A stretch of 64,000 nt of DNA, from assembly GCA_015064085.1 (NCBI GenBank), contig SVSX01000004.1, forward strand, positions 1,528 through 65,527, written 5' to 3'. Under the pieces are notes generated by a model. The model ran no database searches and was not told where the DNA came from. It saw only the letters and a list, made by a program, of their open reading frames with translations. Below are positions 25,820 through 51,487 of this stretch, one piece after another (within the stretch, counting starts at the first letter, position 1; the number at the start of each line of letters is the position of its first letter). The translations under genes were made by a program, and so were the position numbers. The stretch is from Oscillospiraceae bacterium. GTDB taxonomy: Bacteria > Bacillota > Clostridia > Oscillospirales > CAG-272.

Positions 25820-27163
25820 TTATTTACCTGCAATGCTCATATTTCTCACAAGTATCTCGGGAGCGCCGTAAGAGGTGAAGCAGGAAGGAAGTCCGAAGGT
25901 CACCTCGGAGGATATATCCTCAACCGACTTCAAGAGCTCAAAGAAATTACCCGCAACGGTAAAGGACTTAACAGCCTCGGCTATCTTTCCGTCCCTTATA
26001 CGGAAGCCCTCTGAGTCGATAGAGAAATCTCCCGTAACAGCGTTTGCTCCTGCATGGAGACCCTTTAGGGCGGTTATATATATTCCGTCCTTAACTGTTG
26101 CGCAAAGCTCCTCAAAGGTCTTTTTACCGCCCTCTATATAGAAGCTGTAGGGCGCGATAGTCACAGGCTCTGCATATACGCTTCTCTGCCCGTTAGCAGT
26201 CGATTCTCTTCCCGCCTTCATAGCGCTTGTAAGATCGTAAAGAAGGGTGTTAAGAACGCCATTTTCGATAACGGTCTTTCTGTAGGTAGCAACGCCCTCA
26301 CCGTCAAACGAGGTCTGCGCCGCGCAGCCTTCTCTTCTCGGATCATCAACTATAGTTACGCAATCCGAGGCGATCTTCTGTCCCTCCTTACCCGCGAGTA
26401 AGGAAAGACCGAGCTGTGCGCTTCTTCCCGAAAATACCGAGCTGAAGGTCGAGAGAAGGGCTCTCGTCTGCTTTGAGGAGAATATAACGTCGTATTTTCC
26501 GCTCTCTACCTCCTTTGCGCCAAGCTTTGCTATAGCTCCGTCAACGGCTTTTTTGGAGAGCGCAAGGGTGGTATCGTCGTCAAGCTTATCTGTTGACTCA
26601 AAGCTCTCCTCCGACTCCCCGTCGCGATTTATAACCGCCTGAACGTAAGCACCTACCGTTTTATACTTATTTTCAAGATCGAGTCCCTTCGAGTTTATAA
26701 GTCTGAACTCGGATTCGCCCGAAAAAACGTAGCTCTGAGTTCCATCGGTAACAAGCTCACTGACACCGTAGGTATTCTCCTGCATTTTCAGCGCCTTTTC
26801 CTTTATCTCAGCAGCACCGGGTATCTTGATCTCGGGCATATTTGTTTTTTCATAGGAGCTTGAGCCCTCAAAAATAATTGCGGGATCGTCACTCTCGATA
26901 ATTCTCGCGTTTGCCTCAGCGCGCTTGACGATAGCTCTCATCTCCTCGGGGGTGATAAGCTCACTCGAAGCCGAGCCCATTTTACCGTCAACGACACAAC
27001 GGAAGCAAGCGCCTCCCGATACGCCGTAAGCAAAAGCCGAGATCTCATTTTTCAGTGTTTCTGCCGAGACCGAGGAATCCGAGGTATAGAAAAGCTCGTA
27101 TTCGGTAAGTCCAAGCTCGCTTGCGGCATCAAAAACAGTTTGCTTTATATCTTCAAATTTCAT
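25820..27163 (-). CDS. pmbA: PmbA/TldE-type metalloprotease partner subunit
   Basis: TldD/PmbA-family C-terminus (GDFSIDSEGFRIRDGK) without an HExxxH motif. Start set at MKFEDIK (27163). Confidence 0.85.
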   Translation of the reverse strand: MKFEDIKQTVFDAASELGLTEYELFYTSDSSVSAETLKNEISAFAYGVSGGACFRCVVDGKMGSASSELITPEEMRAIVKRAEANARIIESDDPAIIFEGSSSYEKTNMPEIKIPGAAEIKEKALKMQENTYGVSELVTDGTQSYVFSGESEFRLINSKGLDLENKYKTVGAYVQAVINRDGESEESFESTDKLDDDTTLALSKKAVDGAIAKLGAKEVESGKYDVIFSSKQTRALLSTFSSVFSGRSAQLGLSLLAGKEGQKIASDCVTIVDDPRREGCAAQTSFDGEGVATYRKTVIENGVLNTLLYDLTSAMKAGRESTANGQRSVYAEPVTIAPYSFYIEGGKKTFEELCATVKDGIYITALKGLHAGANAVTGDFSIDSEGFRIRDGKIAEAVKSFTVAGNFFELLKSVEDISSEVTFGLPSCFTSYGAPEILVRNMSIAGK

Positions 27164-27183
27164 AAAAAAGCCACCTTTCTCTA

Positions 27184-28563
27184 TCATCTGCCGCCAACGG
27201 TAATATTCTTGACTCGGATAAGCGGCTGACCCACGTCTGTGGGTACGCTTCCGCTCGAAGAGCCGCATACGCCCTGACCAAAATCAAGGTTTTGTCCGAC
27301 CATATCAATATCCATCAATATCTGTGAGCCCGTTCCGATAAGTGACGCGCCTCTTACCGCCTCGCATATCTTACCGTTACGAACCATATATCCCTCTCTT
27401 ACCGAGAAGTTAAACGCGCCTGTGAGGGGATTAACAGATCCACCGCCCATTTCCTTGGCATAGAGTCCGTATTCAATAGACGCGATTATATCCTCGTTCT
27501 TATCAGGTCCATTATCGATATAGGTATTTGTCATTCTCGAGGTCGGTTCAAAGGTATAGGATTGACGGCGGCTATTACCCGTCATCGGCATACCCATTCT
27601 TCTCGATCCAAGTCTGTCTATCATATAATTCTTGAGAATTCCGTTCTCGATAAGCACGTTTCTCTGCGTGGGTGTTCCCTCGTCGTCGATGTTCACCGAT
27701 CCCCAGGCATTCTTTATCGTTCCGTCATCAATTGCCGTTACTTTATCGGAGGCGATCTTCTGCCCGAGCTTTCCGCACATTTCACTCATTCCGACTCCCA
27801 CCTGAGTCGCCTCAAGAGAGTGACCGCAAGCCTCGTGGAAAATAACTCCGCCAAATCCGTTTTCAATTGCGACCGTCATCTGACCCGCCTTGCAATATCC
27901 CGCTCCGAGGTTGACCATTGCCTGTCTTGCGGACTTCTCACCTACAGCCTTGGGAGAGAAAAGCTCAAAGAGCTCAAGCCCCATAGAGCGCCCCGGGGCG
28001 CAAGAGCCCGACTGGTTTTCATTTCCGTCAGACGCTGTAGAATTAACAACAATTCTCGTTGAGGTATGCTTATCCCCAACAAGAAGTCCTTCGCTGTTTG
28101 CGACAAGTATTTCACGCTCGGTATCCAAAAAGTTACCAAGCACCTGAACGATAGCCTCGTTATGGTCGTGAGCCGCAAAGCAAGCCTCCTTCAGAATATC
28201 GGTCTTGACCTTAGCCTCGGCACTTGCGGGGTCTACCTTTACACTGTGGATATCCACAACGCTCTTGGGAGTGAGGCAAAGCGACAGCGCGCCCTTACTC
28301 TCACCAAAAGCTTCTGCAACCGAACGAGCGCACGAAAGAAGTCCCTCACGGCTTATATCGGTCGTCGACGCGTATATCGTACGTGTTCCGCTGAATATGC
28401 GAATTCCGACCCCCGAAAGGTAATTATCGATTACTCTGTCGATCTTTTTATCTATAAATCTTATAACGTTGCTTCTTGTTCTTTCGGCAAATACCTCGGC
28501 AAAATCCGCACCGCTGGACATTGCCACACCGAGTATCTCCTCTATAAGCTTTTTATCAAGCAT
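27184..28563 (-). CDS. tldD: TldD metalloprotease
   Basis: HEACGH zinc motif and GAFNFSVREGYMVRNGK. 459 aa. Confidence 0.9.
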   Translation of the reverse strand: MLDKKLIEEILGVAMSSGADFAEVFAERTRSNVIRFIDKKIDRVIDNYLSGVGIRIFSGTRTIYASTTDISREGLLSCARSVAEAFGESKGALSLCLTPKSVVDIHSVKVDPASAEAKVKTDILKEACFAAHDHNEAIVQVLGNFLDTEREILVANSEGLLVGDKHTSTRIVVNSTASDGNENQSGSCAPGRSMGLELFELFSPKAVGEKSARQAMVNLGAGYCKAGQMTVAIENGFGGVIFHEACGHSLEATQVGVGMSEMCGKLGQKIASDKVTAIDDGTIKNAWGSVNIDDEGTPTQRNVLIENGILKNYMIDRLGSRRMGMPMTGNSRRQSYTFEPTSRMTNTYIDNGPDKNEDIIASIEYGLYAKEMGGGSVNPLTGAFNFSVREGYMVRNGKICEAVRGASLIGTGSQILMDIDMVGQNLDFGQGVCGSSSGSVPTDVGQPLIRVKNITVGGR

Positions 28564-44844: not shown

Positions 44845-44871
44845 CCCCTCGGCGGATTTTCCGCCGAGGGG
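44845..44871 (-). terminator. intrinsic terminator after the 5'-nucleotidase gene; right boundary of the AT-rich island
   Basis: CCCCTCGGCGG-ATTTT-CCGCCGAGGGG. On the minus strand it is followed by AACTTTTT. Confidence 0.75.
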
Positions 44872-44920: not shown

Positions 44921-46894
44921 TCAGGCAGTCTTTCTCTTTTTTACAGCAAAATAATAGACGGCAAACGCTCCTGCGCCTATCACCACGACGCCTATGGGTA
45001 TCGCTATCCACGGCGAAACACTGTCATCGGGAACGGGATTTTCTACAGGTGCTATTGTTGTTGCAGCAGTTGTGCTGCTTTCGGTAGCTACTGTTGTTGA
45101 GGCAACGGCTCTTTTATTTAAAGTGATTCGTCCGCTGCCGTTCAGGCTATCATAATTTGTGTTAAAGCCCTCATACTTTGTCGCAAGCGGTGCTTTATCG
45201 CTCTTGACCTCACTATTTTCAAATGCCATAATATAATTTGCCAACACCATATAATCCTCCATTACGTAATCGAGGATATTGACCGCTCCCTCAAACATCG
45301 CAAAGCCGTCTCCAAGATCGCGAAGGGTATAATTATATCCCGCAAGATTATATTTTGCGTTAAGATCAAGCGCATCCCATTTCTTTGTTTCTTTGTTATA
45401 TATCTCGACGCTATGTACGCGATACTCTCCAGTAGGACCTCCTATCCAGACACCCTTGTCGTCCTTCCTTGTGGTATCCTCTATTGAGGTATCTATCTGA
45501 TATCTCATTCCCGAGACGTGCAAAAATCCACCGCTCTCGGCAGTTCCTATAAGCCTCGCGCCCCATTCAAGGGCATCAAGCAGCTGTCTTCCGCTTACCT
45601 CTTGCAAACAAGCAACATTTCCAAAGGTATGTATTTCCTTGCAGACCTTATAGGTGAGTGTTCCCGTCACCTCTTTATTTCGGATACCGCCTCCGTTCAT
45701 TACCGCAACATCGACGTCGAGTCCCATATCGTCAAAGAGATAATAGAGCGCATCAGCCGCAAAATCGCCCGTGTTTGTTTCCTGTGAGCGTACCAGACGG
45801 TTTCCGTCCTTATCATAATTATCAAATTTAATATCAGTAGTGCCGATAGTGACATTCAGAAGCTCGTCGACCTCTGCTATCCAGCTATCCTTGATTGACT
45901 TCACCGCACTGTCGGAAATAATCTCCGTACCGCTGTAAAGCTCAGAGATAAGCCTATATCCCTCAACGGTTTTACCGTCGGAGGCAAGGATCTCGTCCCA
46001 TTCTATAAAATCGGTGTCTATTGCTCCCGTGTCGGAATCTATTATCATTATACCGATGCGGTCGAAATACTGACCCGTCTGAGTAAGAACAACGTCGTGA
46101 CCTTCCTTGTCCTTTACGATATCATTTTCGACTATATTGTGTGAATGTCCGTCAATAAAAGCATCAAAGCCACAGACTCCCGCTATAGTCTCTATGCTTG
46201 TATAGGGCGAGGAGGAAAGATCGATCCCGAGGTGACCGAGACCAACGATCTGCGTTGCTCCTGCCGCCTTTGCGGCGTCAATTGCCTTTTGAACATCCTG
46301 GCGGAGAGTAGATCCGTCATTGCCTCCCGAAATTCCATAAATGTAATTTCCATGTTCGTCCTGAAAATACGCGGGGGTAGATTTTGTGAAGGTGTCGGGG
46401 GTCGTTATTCCCACAAAAGCGACCTTTTCCTCTCCGCACTCAAACATAACGTAGCTATCGAGCACGTTTTCGCCTCTTACGCCGTTAGATTCGTGATAAA
46501 AGTTTGCCGATACGTATGGAAAATCTGCAAGAGCGATAACGTTCATACAGCCACTCATTCCGTAATCAAACTCGTGATTTCCAAGTGTAGCCACGTCATA
46601 TCCCGCGGCGTTCATAAGCTCGATGATGGATTCGCCCTTGTCCATAGAGCCGTATGCCGTTCCCTGAATATGGTCTCCCGCATCGGCTAAAATCACGTGA
46701 TCATATTTTGTTTTAAGATCCTTCTTTATTGCCGAGATAACGTCATAGCTAAGCTTACCGTCAATATAGGTGTGTACGTCATTCGTATACAAGATGACTA
46801 TGTCGTCGGACAGCGCGTTACTTTCGGCGTTTATCGGGATAGCCACCGAAAGCAGGATAGCCATCGCCATAAAGACTGCAAATATTTTTTTCAT
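44921..46894 (-). CDS. surface-anchored bifunctional metallophosphatase/5'-nucleotidase
   Basis: Signal peptide MKKIFAVFMAMAILLS. Metallophosphatase motifs NDVHTY, DAGDHIQG, GNHEFD, GHSH. 5'-nucleotidase C-domain, a Thr/Ser-rich linker and a C-terminal TM anchor (IAIPIGVVVIGAGAFAVYYFAVKKRK). Start moved to the second Met (GGAG RBS). Confidence 0.88.
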   Translation of the reverse strand: MKKIFAVFMAMAILLSVAIPINAESNALSDDIVILYTNDVHTYIDGKLSYDVISAIKKDLKTKYDHVILADAGDHIQGTAYGSMDKGESIIELMNAAGYDVATLGNHEFDYGMSGCMNVIALADFPYVSANFYHESNGVRGENVLDSYVMFECGEEKVAFVGITTPDTFTKSTPAYFQDEHGNYIYGISGGNDGSTLRQDVQKAIDAAKAAGATQIVGLGHLGIDLSSSPYTSIETIAGVCGFDAFIDGHSHNIVENDIVKDKEGHDVVLTQTGQYFDRIGIMIIDSDTGAIDTDFIEWDEILASDGKTVEGYRLISELYSGTEIISDSAVKSIKDSWIAEVDELLNVTIGTTDIKFDNYDKDGNRLVRSQETNTGDFAADALYYLFDDMGLDVDVAVMNGGGIRNKEVTGTLTYKVCKEIHTFGNVACLQEVSGRQLLDALEWGARLIGTAESGGFLHVSGMRYQIDTSIEDTTRKDDKGVWIGGPTGEYRVHSVEIYNKETKKWDALDLNAKYNLAGYNYTLRDLGDGFAMFEGAVNILDYVMEDYMVLANYIMAFENSEVKSDKAPLATKYEGFNTNYDSLNGSGRITLNKRAVASTTVATESSTTAATTIAPVENPVPDDSVSPWIAIPIGVVVIGAGAFAVYYFAVKKRKTA

Positions 46895-46934
46895 TTTTTT
46901 CTCCATTTCGATATTGAAATTTACTCTTTTTTAA

Positions 46935-47345
46935 TCAGCCTCTGTTTGCGGGATTGTTGCACAGCCATTTACCCTTTGTGTAAATGATATATTTGCAATC
47001 ACCGCAATAGTTCACGGACAAATTACCGTTATTGCATCGGTGACTATAAAGGAATACAGACTTAAAGGACTCGGCTTGTGTCTTTCCGCATTGACTGCAG
47101 ACGTAACAGCTATGCTGCTCTCCAACGGTAATTACAGGTCTGCCCCCGTCATAGCACCAGCCTCCCGCAACCTTGTCAAGGACGTCGTCCGAAAGCTCAC
47201 CGCTATTGGGATGAAGCTGTTCGAAATATTTTTTTGCCTCTTCCTCTGTAAGCTCTAATTCATATTCTTTTGCGAGGGTGATCAACTCCTCCACTGACCT
47301 AGCCTTCTTTGCAAGACCGATCATTTCAGATGTGATTTTTTTCAT
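46935..47345 (-). CDS. Nif11-like double-glycine leader (62 aa) fused to a 74-aa 8-Cys core; RiPP/bacteriocin-precursor-like or Nif11-domain zinc-ribbon protein
   Basis: The leader SVEELITLAKEYELELTEEEAKKYFEQL...ELSDDVLDKVAGG resembles Nif11-type leaders ending in GG. The core begins WCYDGG and carries CYVCSQC ... C-x9-CGDC ... C. GAGG RBS 9 nt upstream. Confidence 0.6.
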   Translation of the reverse strand: MKKITSEMIGLAKKARSVEELITLAKEYELELTEEEAKKYFEQLHPNSGELSDDVLDKVAGGWCYDGGRPVITVGEQHSCYVCSQCGKTQAESFKSVFLYSHRCNNGNLSVNYCGDCKYIIYTKGKWLCNNPANRG

Positions 47346-47393
47346 ATTAGTTACCTCGTTTTATTATATAGAGAAAAGCCCCCTGATACCGAT

Positions 47394-47801
47394 TTAAATT
47401 TTCTTTTTTATAGTGAGTATGTTCTGACCGTCCTTGTACTCGTAGGTGATCTCATCCATAGTTTTCTTTACCATATAGATACCGAGACCTCCTATTTCTC
47501 TATCGTCTGCCGAAAGAGTGACGTCAGGTTCTTTCGCACCAAGAGGATCGTAAGGAACTCCGTTATCTATAAAGGTTATGATGACCGCAAGAGGCTCGGG
47601 ATTTACCTCGACCCTTACGGTCGCCTCTCCGACCTCGGGATCATAGGCATAGTGAGCAATGTTACCAAAAAGCTCGTCGATAGCTATATCTATCTGCATC
47701 TGTGCCTTCAGCGGACACTCAAGGGCTTCAAGCTGCTCGTTCACAAACTCCGTCACAGCCTCAATATTTTCTACCGTTGCGGCAATTGTCAGCTCTTTCA
47801 T
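47394..47801 (-). CDS. RsbW/SpoIIAB-like anti-sigma-type serine kinase (HATPase_c)
   Basis: 135 aa. ELFGNIAHYAY (N-box-like) and DNGVPYDPL...GGLGIYMVKKTMDE (G-boxes). ATGA overlap with the phosphatase gene. Confidence 0.8.
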   Translation of the reverse strand: MKELTIAATVENIEAVTEFVNEQLEALECPLKAQMQIDIAIDELFGNIAHYAYDPEVGEATVRVEVNPEPLAVIITFIDNGVPYDPLGAKEPDVTLSADDREIGGLGIYMVKKTMDEITYEYKDGQNILTIKKKI

Positions 47802-49666
47802 TCGGATACCTCCTCTCGATCGTTATTTTTTCCGTTGAAGCGAAGACAGAGCATCGTTATATCATCAAATTGAGGAGCTCCCAAGACAAAGGCATCCACA
47901 TCGGACTTTACTGCCTCGCAGACAGCCGAGGTGTCGGCATCCGCATTTTTGTTAAGCACCTCAAGCAATCTTTCTTCACCGTAAAGTGAATTATTAAGAT
48001 CTGTAGCCTCGGTAACACCGTCGGTGTACAGATATATTACGTCTCCCTTTTCGAGCTGAAGCTCATTTTTTCGGTAACGTATTCCCTCCATACCTGCGAG
48101 AACAAAACCGGGGCGAGATCTGAGATAGCTGAAGCTTCCGTCGCCGTGCTTTACAAGGGGCGGATTGTGACCTGCGTTTGCGTAGGTTACCTTTCCCGTT
48201 TTGAGATCAAGAAGTCCCATCCAGGCTGTTACAAACATACCGGCGTCATTACCTTCGCAAAGCTTATCGTTGGCAACGGTGAATATCTCCTCAATGCTCA
48301 TTCCCGACTCGGCATAGCTCTTAAGCAGGGTCTTGGAGGTCATCATAAACATTGCCGCGGGAATTCCCTTACCCGAAACGTCGGCTACGAGGAAAGCCAA
48401 GGTATCGTCATCTACAAAATAAAAATCGTAAAAGTCGCCTCCGACCTCCTTTGCGGTATGCATCACGGCATTTATCTCAAATTCGTGTCTGTTTGGGTAC
48501 GGCGGAAATACAGATGGCAGTGCCGAATGCTGTATCGCCTTGGCAAAGGCAAGCTCGGCGTCTATCCTTGCCGCCGCATCCGAAATATAACGCTTAAGTG
48601 TATCTACTGTAGAATTGATGTCATTTGAAAGATCATCAAACTCGGCGTGAGAACGAACGTCTACCACTGTGTCAAGATTTCCGTCGGTGATCGATGACAG
48701 CGAGCTGTTTATCTTATATATATTCTTGACAACAAGTCGGTTCACGAGGAAGAATATCAGAATAAAGAGCGCTGTGAAGATCACTATCTGCATTGCGGTC
48801 GTCACACCGACCGCCACGTTTCTTGAAAGCGCCGCCTCTCTTTGCGGCATTACCGCAACTATCGTGTATCCCTCGCTTGTCTGGTACATACAGTAGCTTG
48901 CTTCGCCGTAAACCTCACAAATAAACCTTTCGTTCGCGGGAGTCGACTCCTTATCTATCCAGATACCCGTAACGTCAAGATTTTTTCCTTCGTTTCCTTG
49001 GCGATCACTGACAATATTCCAATTCTCATCGACAATTATTATCGAGCCGCCCTCGCCAACGTGACGGTTTCTTGTTACGCCCACAACAAATTCGTCAATA
49101 TCACGCTGAAATCTTTCAGCGCCGTAGCCAACCTGGACAAACCCGCCATTCTCAAGTGATACCCCTCCGTATTTTCTCGATATCGAGTTGTCATAGGAAA
49201 CAGGGCGGTAGCTTTGAACGTATTCCTCTTTATCGGAAAGCAACACCAAAAATTCCGCCGACTGTTTCCCGCTATCCATTCTGTAATCCAAAAAATCAGG
49301 ATAGGTACTTGCTCTTATCACTCCGTCGGGATCAATATAATTGATTTCGGTAACGTCATATTTCTCGGCAAGAGCTGAAAGCAGCTCAGAGGAAATGCTG
49401 TCTGCCCCATTGAGATCGTCAGCCACCTGATGTGTAAGCTTCAGAAGATTTTCGTCGGATGCGTCTGTAATATCCTCGCGCACATCGGAAATATTAAGTC
49501 TCAGAAGGCTTATAGCATTGTTGTCTGCAAGCTTTGTCTGAAGCAGCCACAAAAACGCTGTGGTCGCAAGAAAGGCTATCACGACAAGAACGAGTAACCA
49601 ACGCTGGAACGATTGCGATATTTTGCGTTTTTTTCTGTTTTTTTTCATTATCTTATCTTTGATCAT
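47798..49666 (-). CDS. membrane sensor PP2C (SpoIIE/RsbU-type) serine phosphatase with extracytoplasmic domain and HAMP
   Basis: TM1 (WLLVLVVIAFLATTAFLWLL), an extracytoplasmic region of about 230 aa, TM2, a HAMP-like segment (SSITDGNLDTVVDV..DDLSNDINSTV), then PP2C motifs GGDFYDF, VADVSGKG, YTDGVTEA, DDITML. Confidence 0.85.
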   Translation of the reverse strand: MIKDKIMKKNRKKRKISQSFQRWLLVLVVIAFLATTAFLWLLQTKLADNNAISLLRLNISDVREDITDASDENLLKLTHQVADDLNGADSISSELLSALAEKYDVTEINYIDPDGVIRASTYPDFLDYRMDSGKQSAEFLVLLSDKEEYVQSYRPVSYDNSISRKYGGVSLENGGFVQVGYGAERFQRDIDEFVVGVTRNRHVGEGGSIIIVDENWNIVSDRQGNEGKNLDVTGIWIDKESTPANERFICEVYGEASYCMYQTSEGYTIVAVMPQREAALSRNVAVGVTTAMQIVIFTALFILIFFLVNRLVVKNIYKINSSLSSITDGNLDTVVDVRSHAEFDDLSNDINSTVDTLKRYISDAAARIDAELAFAKAIQHSALPSVFPPYPNRHEFEINAVMHTAKEVGGDFYDFYFVDDDTLAFLVADVSGKGIPAAMFMMTSKTLLKSYAESGMSIEEIFTVANDKLCEGNDAGMFVTAWMGLLDLKTGKVTYANAGHNPPLVKHGDGSFSYLRSRPGFVLAGMEGIRYRKNELQLEKGDVIYLYTDGVTEATDLNNSLYGEERLLEVLNKNADADTSAVCEAVKSDVDAFVLGAPQFDDITMLCLRFNGKNNDREEVSE

Positions 49667-49989: not shown

Positions 49990-50028
49990 AGATCTGCCAT
50001 ACTATTATAATAACAGTATAACAGATCT
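49990..50028 (-). promoter_or_regulatory. 39-bp near-perfect palindrome: terminator of the LuxR gene and/or operator/promoter of the partner-switching operon
   Basis: Minus strand: AGATCTGTTATACTGTTAT-T-ATAATAGTATGGCAGATCT (19-nt arms, 3 mismatches), followed by TTTTT. It contains TATAAT in the centre and lies 30 nt upstream of the STAS ATG. Confidence 0.5.
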
Positions 50029-50116
50029 TTGTATTTTTGTTTATTACCCAAACGGTGTTTTTAAGGTCTTTTTTATAGTAAAAAACATATCCTAAAAGTG
50101 AAAAAAAGATATATTG

Positions 50117-51376
50117 TCACAGTATGTACGCGAACTCATCTCGGCTCATACCCGACTTTTCGCTGGTGGTTCTTATTGCCTGCTTTACTACAGAAAGCGA
50201 CATATGAAGCTTTTCAGCTATTTGCGCGTTACTCATTCCAAAGGCGGCAAGCTTTGCCACGTCTCTTTCCTTTTGCGTAAGCGTCGTTGCTATCTGCCGT
50301 CCTAACACCACGCTGCCGAGCTTAGACCAGCCTGCGTTATATATCCTGCTAAGCGCCTTTACAGCTTGACACACTTCTACATCCACAGCGGAGAGTCTGC
50401 TTTCAAGAAGAGTATCAAGCACACGCCAATATTCGGCAAGAAGTCCGAAGAGTCTATCGGGTATCGCAAGAGCAATAGCACGATCCAGATGCCTTACAGC
50501 GTTCTCCTCATTGCCGCTGAGGCGGTATACAGTAGCGCAGGTCATACGGAGATATATTTCCGATATGATCGAATTATCCGCCTTCGCCTGAGATATCATC
50601 GGCTCAAGGGTAAACGGAACCATCGCCATAAGGGAAAGTCCTTGTACTCCCTCTACTCCCATCTGCTTTGTTGCAACCGCATACGCCGCAGCGTAAAGAT
50701 ATTTAGCGTAATATACCTTTGCGGCAGGCAACGCGTCTTTATGCAACGGCTCAAAATTTCCCATTTTGAACCACTCGGGAAAGTTTGAAACATCATAAAG
50801 CATACTGTCAACAGCTGTAATTGCAAGAGCCATAATATCTCGGTCATTATCATCCTTCGCGGGGGCTTCGGCAATGTGCTGTTTTGCCTGACGCCACATT
50901 ACGAGATCCCCGCGCCAGATGGCGCAAAGCGCCAAAAGCATTCCCGCCGAAATAATAGCATAAAAGCCCGAGTGCTTATGTAAAAGATAGTTTGCGCTGT
51001 TATATACTCTGTCGATATTTCCCCTTGAGTACGACACCTCGGCTTCAAAAAGCACCTGTGCCTCTCGGTTATCTGAAAGTGCCTCGACTGCTTCATCGGC
51101 ACTTCCCGGCACACTGTAGAGATCGCTCATATACAGAAAGGGAGTTTTTCTCGGCAGAGGCTGATTTAAAAGCTCCGGCTTCTTCCCTTCCTTTGTCCTT
51201 CCGTCAACAGGGCGGACCGCGTCCTTCGGTATCATCCAATCACGCCCGAACCTTACAGCGCCGTTTATCCTTCCCGCGGCACAAAGTGCCTGAACTCTGC
51301 GAGGGGTCACCTCCCACCGCTCTGCCGCCGCGTCTATTTTCATATAATTTTTTGAAAGCTCCTGCACATCCTTCAT
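50117..51376 (-). CDS. LuxR-family transcriptional regulator with N-terminal excisionase/MerR-like HTH and central helical-repeat domain
   Basis: The C-terminal LTQKERDVAKLAAFGMSNAQIAEKLHMSLSVVKQAIRT is a LuxR/GerE HTH. The N-terminal ERWEVTPRRVQALCAAGRINGAVRFGRDWMIPKD is HTH_17-like. Start at MKDVQE (51376; alternative 51382). The track start TTG 51487 is the -35 hexamer of the promoter. Confidence 0.8.
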   Translation of the reverse strand: MKDVQELSKNYMKIDAAAERWEVTPRRVQALCAAGRINGAVRFGRDWMIPKDAVRPVDGRTKEGKKPELLNQPLPRKTPFLYMSDLYSVPGSADEAVEALSDNREAQVLFEAEVSYSRGNIDRVYNSANYLLHKHSGFYAIISAGMLLALCAIWRGDLVMWRQAKQHIAEAPAKDDNDRDIMALAITAVDSMLYDVSNFPEWFKMGNFEPLHKDALPAAKVYYAKYLYAAAYAVATKQMGVEGVQGLSLMAMVPFTLEPMISQAKADNSIISEIYLRMTCATVYRLSGNEENAVRHLDRAIALAIPDRLFGLLAEYWRVLDTLLESRLSAVDVEVCQAVKALSRIYNAGWSKLGSVVLGRQIATTLTQKERDVAKLAAFGMSNAQIAEKLHMSLSVVKQAIRTTSEKSGMSRDEFAYIL

Positions 51377-51458
51377 CAGCATCGCTCCTTTTTGTATCGC
51401 AAAATCATTCACCATTATTCGTTTTGCGAACAATAACATTATTCGTCTGGCGTACTTT

Positions 51459-51487
51459 ATTATATAACTTTTTTTTCGAATTGTCAA
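51459..51487 (-). promoter_or_regulatory. consensus sigma-A promoter for the LuxR-family gene
   Basis: Minus strand reads TTGACA (51487..51482), a 17-nt spacer, then TATAAT (51464..51459). AAAGGAG RBS downstream. Confidence 0.65.

Follow-up and report, generated by a model that had tools for sequence, protein, structure and literature searches.

Nif11-type precursors (N11P) of peptides that are synthesized on ribosomes and modified post-translationally (RiPPs) show hypervariable core peptides of on average ~23 amino acids (aa), family-wide similarity ends at the double glycine (GG) of the leader, and in some cases the genes for precursors and for processing lie apart, with examples that are not clustered with a maturase (Haft, Basu & Mitchell 2010, PMC2887384). 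For anaerobes, the relevant sections of Letzel et al. 2014 (PMC4289311) present NHLP/Nif11 clusters that combine a peptidase-transporter with radical S-adenosylmethionine (SAM) enzymes, such as Elen_2949-2954 of Eggerthella lenta, as uncharacterised, with cores of 14-59 aa and 1-3 precursors. Here, we describe a precursor gene with a longer core that lies in a stretch of 64,000 nucleotides from an Oscillospiraceae bacterium (GCA_015064085.1, contig SVSX01000004.1, positions 1,528 to 65,527 of the forward strand; hereafter "the window"), together with the gene cluster in which its relatives are found. With high confidence, we assign this gene, which is intact, to a large family of gut Clostridia that has no curated model and in which a Nif11-type GG leader of ~60 aa precedes a conserved, Cys-rich core of ~71 aa. 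In its relatives, this family is part of a regulated maturation and export cluster, of which the window has only the three partner-switching genes and one precursor.

Two further kinds of radical SAM systems are relevant to such a protein. The known cores of sactipeptides and ranthipeptides are much shorter than the one described below, and their leaders are short and unrelated. QhpC, the gamma subunit of quinohemoprotein amine dehydrogenase, is a protein-sized Cys substrate with a cleaved leader that is multiply crosslinked by the SPASM radical SAM enzyme QhpD.

A large precursor family with a conserved Cys-rich core

The 136-aa reading frame is a real gene and not a chance open reading frame (ORF). 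A preliminary description of the window had quoted this protein and its GAGG ribosome-binding site, and our translation agrees with the quoted sequence residue for residue; we add that the gene lies on the minus strand (Table 1). The ORF is intact behind a good ribosome-binding site, and at least 9 metagenomic contigs in public records encode the identical protein. The 4 contigs that we retrieved come from 4 different JGI samples and have the order kinase, precursor, 5'-nucleotidase in common, but their DNA is 99.8-100% identical and therefore uninformative on selection from natural variation. Relatives are abundant: when 1.84 billion cluster representatives were searched exhaustively with phmmer, 1564 of them passed E<=1e-3 and 301 passed E<=1e-10. 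Many of these align across the full length of the precursor, and the best ones end to end at 37-53% identity, while a word-indexed homologue search had pointed to a shared leader only. The maximum identity of the window precursor to any relative is about 52-53%. In the public record, the protein carries the name "DUF2624 family protein"; the underlying match to DUF2624 (PF11116), the best one that Pfam gives for this protein, scores 21.5 bits against a gathering threshold of 24.7 and covers leader residues 1-46 only, which makes the name uninformative and probably a mis-assignment.

The division into a leader (residues 1-62) and a core with 8 Cys (residues 63-136) that had been read from the sequence before is borne out in the translation. 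The leader ends in DKVAGG, with VAGG at residues 59-62, and AlphaFold2 (AF2) predicts four helices in it. Taken by itself, the window copy stays below the cut-offs of all three relevant models: TIGR03798 requires 32.3 bits but gives the whole protein 18.1 and the isolated leader 21.0, Pfam Nif11 (PF07862) gives 12.6 against 23.8, and the NHLP model TIGR03793 gives 13.5-16.0 against 50.9. The original assignment to the Nif11-type double-glycine leaders thus fails for this single copy, but it stands at the level of the family: 27 of 33 full-length homologues match TIGR03798 at E<=1e-3 (best 1.9e-10), and the family profile aligns to a solved "Nif11 domain-containing protein" (PDB 9zn4_A; E 2.5e-7) through ...ELSDSELEAVAGG to the terminal AVAGG. 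With the same TIGR03798 model, the precursor paralogues in one complete cluster (L006) score 29.5-31.9 bits. We have kept the Nif11 assignment because the family matches both TIGR03798 and the solved Nif11 domain and, judged through its own family, the leader is by sequence similarity homologous to Nif11-type leaders.

Features expected of a cleavage site are well preserved. The two Gly columns of the GG are conserved at 88% and 96% among 187 distinct family sequences, G62 is invariant in an alignment of 33 sequences, and the window leader keeps the GG as well as hydrophobic residues at positions -4, -7, and -12, which are the features that C39 peptidase domains read. Class II double-glycine bacteriocins, which are unmodified, have a short (~15-30 aa) and unstructured GG leader with adjacent exporter and immunity genes. 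The window gene, by contrast, has a leader of 62 aa with four predicted helices and no adjacent exporter. Matches to bacteriocin leader models were weak only and spanned the final ~15 residues of the leader and at most a few beyond the GG.

The core was assessed against 384 leader-bearing ORFs extracted from 83 loci, of which 203 match a hidden Markov model (HMM) of the family core; the median core is 71 aa long and has 10 Cys. When 187 distinct cores are aligned, the alignment has ten conserved Cys columns (57-100%) and 15 non-Cys columns conserved at >=70%, among them Gly, Arg, Val, Tyr, Glu, Trp, Leu, and Asn positions, and follows the consensus GG-x-C-Y..G..VVT....C..W.C..CG ... C ... C..C.Y..YE.GLWLCNNP.N. 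In the window core, Cys stand at core positions 2, 18, 21, 24, 42, 52, 55, and 67 (spacing C, C-x2-C-x2-C, C-x9-C-x2-C, C), which fill 8 of the ten conserved columns, the second of them at an offset of 2 residues. The two absent Cys belong to the least conserved columns (57-59%), and exactly 8 Cys are also found in 27 of the 187 distinct cores. All highly conserved positions are kept, including the GG, the Cys columns conserved at >=70%, and the WLCNNP.N tail. Held-out HMMs place the window leader at the 18th and the core at the 16th percentile of the family, so by sequence the window copy is divergent yet inside the family range. What had been highlighted as an unusually long 8-Cys core is, seen against this background, a typical core of a large conserved family and slightly Cys-poor.

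The nearest cores, from loci L059, L030, and L009, are 45-50% identical to the window core and all lie in clusters with an exporter, a sigma factor, and a radical SAM enzyme; the two closest ones (L059 and L030) share its C-x2-C-x2-C subtype. A core without a GG leader was never found among the surveyed loci, and 8 apparent cases were truncated or frameshifted array members or had a shorter GG leader. Beside this core family, we observed 181 ORFs across the loci that have other, unrelated long Cys-rich cores fused to the same Nif11-type leader (median 68 aa, 6 Cys; for example L012 12725-13036 and L092 11196-11918), some of which resemble CxxC...CxxC zinc ribbons. Judging from these sequences, one export system seems to serve several core families.

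AF2 models of the window protein are confident, with a predicted local distance difference test (pLDDT) score of 84.9 in the full-length model, where most of the core reaches 84-95, and of 81.7 in the core-only model, and the modeled core is compact and beta-rich. Searches of the core against Pfam and NCBIfam found no family and only chance-level zinc-finger-like matches (zf-MYND, Cas12f TNB; E ~0.1), and Foldseek comparison of the full and core-only models with the PDB found no structural neighbor (nothing at E<0.3 or TM >0.30; best E 1.6 for the core). PDB zinc fingers were matched by the family profile at E 0.013-0.06, which is not significant. We did not adopt a zinc-ribbon label, which no Pfam or Foldseek link to the core backs and which remains a guess from two CxxC pairs (C83/C86 and C114/C117).

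The canonical cluster in related loci

We surveyed 79 related loci in species-representative genomes, almost all of them metagenome-assembled genomes of gut Clostridia, and counted cluster components in the 33 loci with enough flanking sequence. The canonical gene order is STAS, PP2C phosphatase, anti-sigma kinase, HlyD-like protein, C39-peptidase ATP-binding cassette (ABC) exporter (PCAT), second ABC protein (ABC2), a small ORF (orf78), a sigma factor of the extracytoplasmic function (ECF) type, 1-15 precursors (median 4), and a radical SAM/SPASM enzyme. Among the well-covered loci, the radical SAM/SPASM gene is present in 30/33 and the set of PCAT, ABC2, and HlyD-like protein in 28/33, followed by the ECF sigma factor (25/33), orf78 (24/33), PP2C (22/33), and the kinase (21/33). 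An independent, exporter-anchored survey of 30 loci on metagenome contigs gave a comparable picture with ABC2 in 30/30, the radical SAM enzyme in 24/30, and the sigma factor with orf78 in 16/30. Three loci (L025, L062, and L063) are bare precursor loci.

Comparison with the window is most direct for the P0002 loci, which share both of its flanks, namely STAS, PP2C, and HATPase_c_2 kinase genes upstream and a 5'-nucleotidase gene downstream. Between these shared flanks, they hold nine more genes, comprising the HlyD-like protein (158 aa), the C39-peptidase ABC exporter, the second ABC protein, the 78-aa orf78, the ECF-type sigma factor, two precursors, and the Radical_SAM+SPASM enzyme. The exporter scores 943 bits with TIGR03796 (cut-off 853) and the second ABC protein 733 bits with TIGR03797 (cut-off 709), while for the 158-aa HlyD-like protein, the match to TIGR03794 is confined to positions 1-54 of the model. 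In the P0002 species (L005-L008 / L077), we also noted that the sigma gene, a single ORF in most other loci, consists of two overlapping ORFs (73 + 111 aa), and that the radical SAM gene of L005 is split as well (240 + 224 aa); these splits could be assembly errors or signs of cluster decay.

The putative maturase combines Radical_SAM and SPASM domains with an N-terminal extension of ~90 aa. Among solved proteins, PqqE, SkfB, and CteB come closest to it (E 1e-10 to 1e-7). Neither precursor nor maturase matched any model of a named class (SCIFF, StsB, nif11-class radical SAM maturase 3, and others) above cut-off. We propose that the leader would guide this enzyme to the Cys-rich core, where the modification might most plausibly consist of Cys-derived crosslinks, and that the C39-peptidase ABC exporter, the second ABC protein, and the truncated HlyD-like protein (TIGR03796, TIGR03797, and TIGR03794-like) would then cleave after the GG and export the product.

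An alternative to this view is that the core needs no radical SAM step and is secreted as an unmodified, metal- or disulfide-folded miniprotein, which in the case of the window would leave through a double-glycine peptidase exporter encoded elsewhere. Such a protein would agree with the confident, compact, and beta-rich core that AF2 predicts from the alignment alone, with the conservation of Trp, Tyr, Gly, Asn, and Pro besides Cys as in a folded domain, and with the two CxxC pairs. In addition, seven loci have an exporter and no radical SAM gene in the available sequence (L010, L012, L015, L024, L026, L043, and L092). We had considered an exporter-only subtype free of radical SAM enzymes (L010, L012, L015, and others) but rejected it, since all such loci, L092 included, end at a contig edge within ~1 kb past the precursor array, so that absence of the enzyme is not established there, and since Cys patterns do not separate these loci from those with the enzyme. 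The radical SAM/SPASM gene next to the array in nearly all well-covered loci, the occurrence of the window core subtype in clusters with this gene, and the lack of a match to a zinc ribbon or other known fold further speak against an unmodified product, and extracellular disulfides are unlikely in the habitat of an anaerobe. A secreted miniprotein with a distant exporter, as had been suggested before for the window gene, is thus still conceivable, but the family context implies that a modification step normally belongs to the pathway, and we regard a product without one as unlikely.

In the proposed system, production would be conditional. The membrane PP2C phosphatase, the STAS protein, and the RsbW-like kinase would control the ECF-type sigma factor by partner switching, and the sigma factor, encoded behind orf78 and a TAGCC-N16-CGTATAAA promoter of its own, would drive the array of 1-15 precursors and the dedicated radical SAM/SPASM enzyme. 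We found a conserved motif, (T/G)TAGCC-N16-CGTATAAA, ~40-90 nt upstream of orf78 and sigma and also of some precursors in canonical clusters (for example in L087, L074, L028, L033, and L040), which looks ECF-style because of its CGT -10 element. Strict matches number 18 before orf78, 7 before precursors, and 36 elsewhere, the latter compared with ~35 expected by chance according to our own estimate from pattern length and amount of sequence scanned.

The small ORF that accompanies the sigma gene deserves a description of its own. It is 65-80 aa long, overlaps the start of the ECF sigma gene in an ATGA (for example L006 8832-9068), has no Pfam or NCBIfam match, and is conserved as LFDYQrFenNPrL...LSDDDLxxVsAAGE followed by a short charged tail. 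Its C-terminal part resembles the end of the precursor leader with AAG-E in place of the GG. One may speculate from this resemblance that orf78 encodes a leader mimic or an anti-sigma protein with a fate tied to that of the peptidase exporter's substrates.

A probably reduced locus in the window

The partner-switching genes directly upstream of the window precursor are all intact and closely related to those of canonical clusters. The kinase is 76-83% identical to its counterparts (78% in tblastn; 83% to L012) and the STAS protein 63-72%, while the PP2C protein aligns to residues 198-811 of an 811-aa homologue (L006) with 63% identity. It starts exactly where the 811-aa homologues end their N-terminal 5TMR_LYT membrane-sensor domain, and the window holds no remnant of this domain because the STAS gene overlaps the PP2C start codon. 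On the other side, a 5'-nucleotidase gene also closes the cluster in L006, L074, L087, and L012, with only 35-38% identity to that of the window; it is a flanking gene and not part of the system, though it is probably co-transcribed with the precursor.

Between these flanks, everything but the precursor is missing. A tblastn search of the window with all proteins of a complete related cluster (E<0.1) matched only STAS, PP2C, kinase, precursor, and 5'-nucleotidase and found no exporter, second ABC protein, radical SAM/SPASM enzyme, sigma factor, HlyD-like protein, or orf78. Existing Pfam annotation of all genes called on contig positions 1-67319 (the window plus 3.3 kb) likewise has no LanM/LanC, YcaO, Peptidase_C39, ABC_membrane, or SPASM domain, and the only two Radical_SAM genes there encode UPF0004-type methylthiotransferases. 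Both results agree with the preliminary description, which had reported no LanM, radical SAM maturase, cyclodehydratase, or peptidase-ABC exporter in the 64 kb. The window is the sole well-covered locus with the partner-switching genes and a precursor and nothing else of the cluster.

Table 1. Features of the precursor locus, in positions of the window
Feature	Position	Strand	Evidence and remarks
Strong intrinsic-terminator-like hairpin	44845..44871	minus	After the 5'-nucleotidase gene; 12-bp stem with 10 GC pairs, then a T run; consensus scan
Secreted 5'-nucleotidase/metallophosphatase	44921..46906	minus	Pfam 5_nucleotid_C and Metallophos; immediately downstream of the precursor
Precursor gene, 136 aa, ATG start	46935..47345	minus	ORF list; stop codon 46935-46937
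Conserved Cys-rich core, residues 63-136 (74 aa, 8 Cys)	46938..47159	minus	Family core HMM; AF2
Nif11-type helical leader, residues 1-62, ends ELSDDVLDKVAGG	47160..47345	minus	TIGR03798 and PDB 9zn4_A at family level; predicted cleavage after GG
GAGG ribosome-binding site	47354-47357	minus	8 nt upstream of the ATG; direct sequence reading
HATPase_c_2 anti-sigma-type serine kinase, 135 aa	47394..47801	minus	PF13581, 72.8 bits; ends 48 nt before the precursor start
PP2C (SpoIIE-type) phosphatase, 622 aa, with transmembrane segment and HAMP	47798..49666	minus	SpoIIE, 180.9 bits; HAMP sub-threshold
STAS anti-anti-sigma-type protein, 98 aa	49663..49959	minus	Pfam STAS, 57.9 bits
Sigma-70-like promoter match, candidate operon promoter	50015..50043	minus	Upstream of STAS; consensus scan, 9/12 plus extended TG; pattern match only

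We infer that STAS, PP2C, kinase, precursor, and 5'-nucleotidase form one transcription unit because only 48 nt separate the kinase stop from the precursor start, STAS is preceded by a promoter-like site, and the consensus scan found no terminator-like site on the way from the kinase via the precursor to the beginning of the 5'-nucleotidase gene, the first one being the hairpin behind the latter (Table 1). The ECF-type motif of the canonical clusters is absent from 44.8-51.8 kb of the window, and its sole strict match in the window (17007-16982, minus strand) is at chance level. Going by these patterns, the window precursor would most likely be read through from the STAS operon promoter and have no sigma-type promoter of its own.

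We consider it reasonably probable that the window gene is a stranded precursor, left behind by the reduction of a formerly complete cluster, that could be matured and exported only via machinery encoded elsewhere in the genome. Cluster reduction is suggested by both flanks being common to full clusters and by the truncated PP2C gene. The stranded precursor would still be translated and, if its partners are encoded elsewhere, would be matured in trans; we rate such maturation at close to, though not quite, an even chance because the ORF is intact, the key positions are kept despite low identity to all relatives, and unclustered Nif11 precursors are well known. A recent relic is somewhat less probable in our estimate, and the remainder falls to export without modification or to co-option.

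Several observations weigh against this interpretation. The exporter, maturase, and sigma factor that it would require in the same genome are absent from the visible 67 of the 171 kb of the contig, and a metagenome scan with the closest available PCAT (from L012) found none from the 4 samples that carry the gene among its best 80 matches, drawn from at least 600 candidates, which is weak evidence. Scores of leader and core in the lower fifth of the family would also be expected of early decay. We infer a deletion here rather than an insertion elsewhere, but this direction is not proven because the flanking 5'-nucleotidases are only 35-38% identical, so the synteny on the right-hand side may involve paralogues. 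Finally, the maturase of the related loci, on which the proposed chemistry depends, has no curated equivalog in NCBIfam, with best scores of 71-110 bits against cut-offs of 400-725.

In part, the same data would fit a decaying relic, in which exporter, sigma factor, and radical SAM enzyme have been lost from the genome and the precursor is a leftover open frame without maturation, export, or function. Besides the lack of partner genes in 67 kb, the missing ECF-type promoter motif, the PP2C without the sensor domain of its 811-aa homologues, a leader below the TIGR03798 cut-off where relatives reach 29-32 bits, the percentiles of leader and core, and (weakly) the lack of a close PCAT from the same samples among the best 80 matches, this possibility has in its favor that truncated and frameshifted copies occur in related arrays, so the family does decay. 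However, a relic would hardly be expected to combine an intact ORF and a good ribosome-binding site with the retention of every highly conserved position at an identity of no more than about 52-53% to any relative; the STAS, PP2C, and kinase genes are intact too, and the arrangement is stable across four samples. We therefore see decay as a possible explanation that is nonetheless doubtful.

The preserved regulatory genes invite yet another explanation, in which the full-length protein has been co-opted as a cytoplasmic output or modulator of the STAS-PP2C-kinase module, which the preliminary description had framed as an intracellular zinc-ribbon output protein. The module is intact with no sigma gene nearby, the precursor lies next to it and is probably co-transcribed, and the leader-like orf78 beside the sigma gene of canonical clusters hints at regulatory contacts of leader-like segments. 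Inherited synteny, however, accounts in full for this adjacency, the cluster in question being one for secretion and maturation with the ECF sigma factor as its likely regulatory output; the export and cleavage signature (GG plus hydrophobic positions) is retained, and the core is never found without a GG leader. Moreover, in its domains the protein is unlike sigma factors, STAS proteins, and kinase substrates, no link to zinc ribbons was found, and no other locus has a kinase and a precursor without an exporter. We consequently do not uphold that proposal and consider an intracellular role very unlikely. Similarly improbable in its entirety is the most far-reaching combination, namely that the core is a new autonomous fold and the system a new class of radical SAM-crosslinked, exported mini-protein RiPPs gated by partner switching, ECF sigma factor, and leader mimic, with the lone window precursor co-opted intracellularly.

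Two other features of the window were noted. A regulator of 440-456 aa with an N-terminal HTH_17 and a C-terminal LuxR/GerE helix-turn-helix domain is encoded just upstream of STAS (50117-51487, minus strand) but is probably outside the system, as none of the related loci has a counterpart. At 19-21 kb from the precursor, the window encodes a TldD/PmbA protease pair (459 + 455 aa; ~25820-28563, minus strand). The E. coli TldD/PmbA pair trims the leader of microcin B17; a link to the precursor is unlikely here because of this distance and the location among housekeeping genes.

Significance and comparison with known systems

The single gene in the window is a modest curiosity of probably limited consequence, but it is an entry point to a widespread and experimentally tractable system. 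Its leader and export logic are already known, while the core family and the cluster architecture appear uncharacterised; we found no curated model of the family, and a literature search of incomplete coverage, aimed at these precursors or at RiPP clusters that include partner switching, returned only general papers on NHLP/Nif11 and radical SAM RiPPs. In hundreds of precursors of gut Clostridia, which come in arrays of up to 15, the "core peptide" is a Cys-rich domain of ~70 aa that is conserved, has a confident fold prediction, and lacks a solved relative. The control layer of STAS/PP2C/kinase partner switching, ECF sigma factor, and leader-mimic ORF that appears from gene content to be tied to peptide production is unusual. 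If the proposed chemistry is true, radical SAM RiPP biology would extend from short peptides to mini-proteins, and if the regulatory logic holds as well, the system would offer a testable case of signal-gated secreted-peptide production in abundant, mostly uncultured gut anaerobes. The reduced locus itself can be viewed as a natural experiment on whether precursors work in trans or gain other roles.

With the N11P systems (TIGR03798; for example the prochlorosin precursor ProcA), the family shares a long helical leader ending in ELSD-E/D-EL-x-x-V-A-G-G with cleavage expected after the GG, precursors in paralogous multi-copy arrays, and, with N11P/NHLM systems (TIGR03794/03796/03797), an exporter of two ABC proteins and an HlyD-like protein, whose ABC subunits in related loci score above the equivalog cut-offs. 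It differs in a core of 74 aa (family median 71) that is conserved beyond the GG across genomes, in a maturase of the radical SAM/SPASM type rather than a LanM or cyclodehydratase, and in its hosts, which are gut Clostridia and not cyanobacteria. Furthermore, the window copy falls under the TIGR03798 cut-off, the HlyD-like protein has only ~158 aa, and the cluster of the family adds a partner-switching module, an ECF sigma factor, and a leader-mimic ORF. Also similar are clusters of the Elen_2949-2954 type, which have a VAGG/VSGG leader, a peptidase-ABC transporter, and radical SAM enzymes instead of LanM or a cyclodehydratase in anaerobe hosts; the sections of Letzel et al. that treat them describe no conserved Cys-rich fold, partner-switching module, or sigma factor, so the distinction is one of description and not of sequence.

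The sactipeptide and ranthipeptide systems (SkfB, CteB, RumMC, StsB) resemble the canonical cluster in pairing a Cys-rich core with a dedicated radical SAM/SPASM enzyme with an N-terminal extension, and of the proteins with solved structures, SkfB and CteB rank with those nearest to our maturase, while StsB is one of its NCBIfam matches. The similarity is distant, however (E 1e-7 to 1e-10; 83 bits against a cut-off of 625). Of a different nature is the comparison with QhpC and QhpD: QhpC is an enzyme subunit, is not multi-copy, and is not exported via a double-glycine leader, but its modification by QhpD offers a parallel, drawn by description only, for a radical SAM substrate that is a mini-protein rather than a short peptide.

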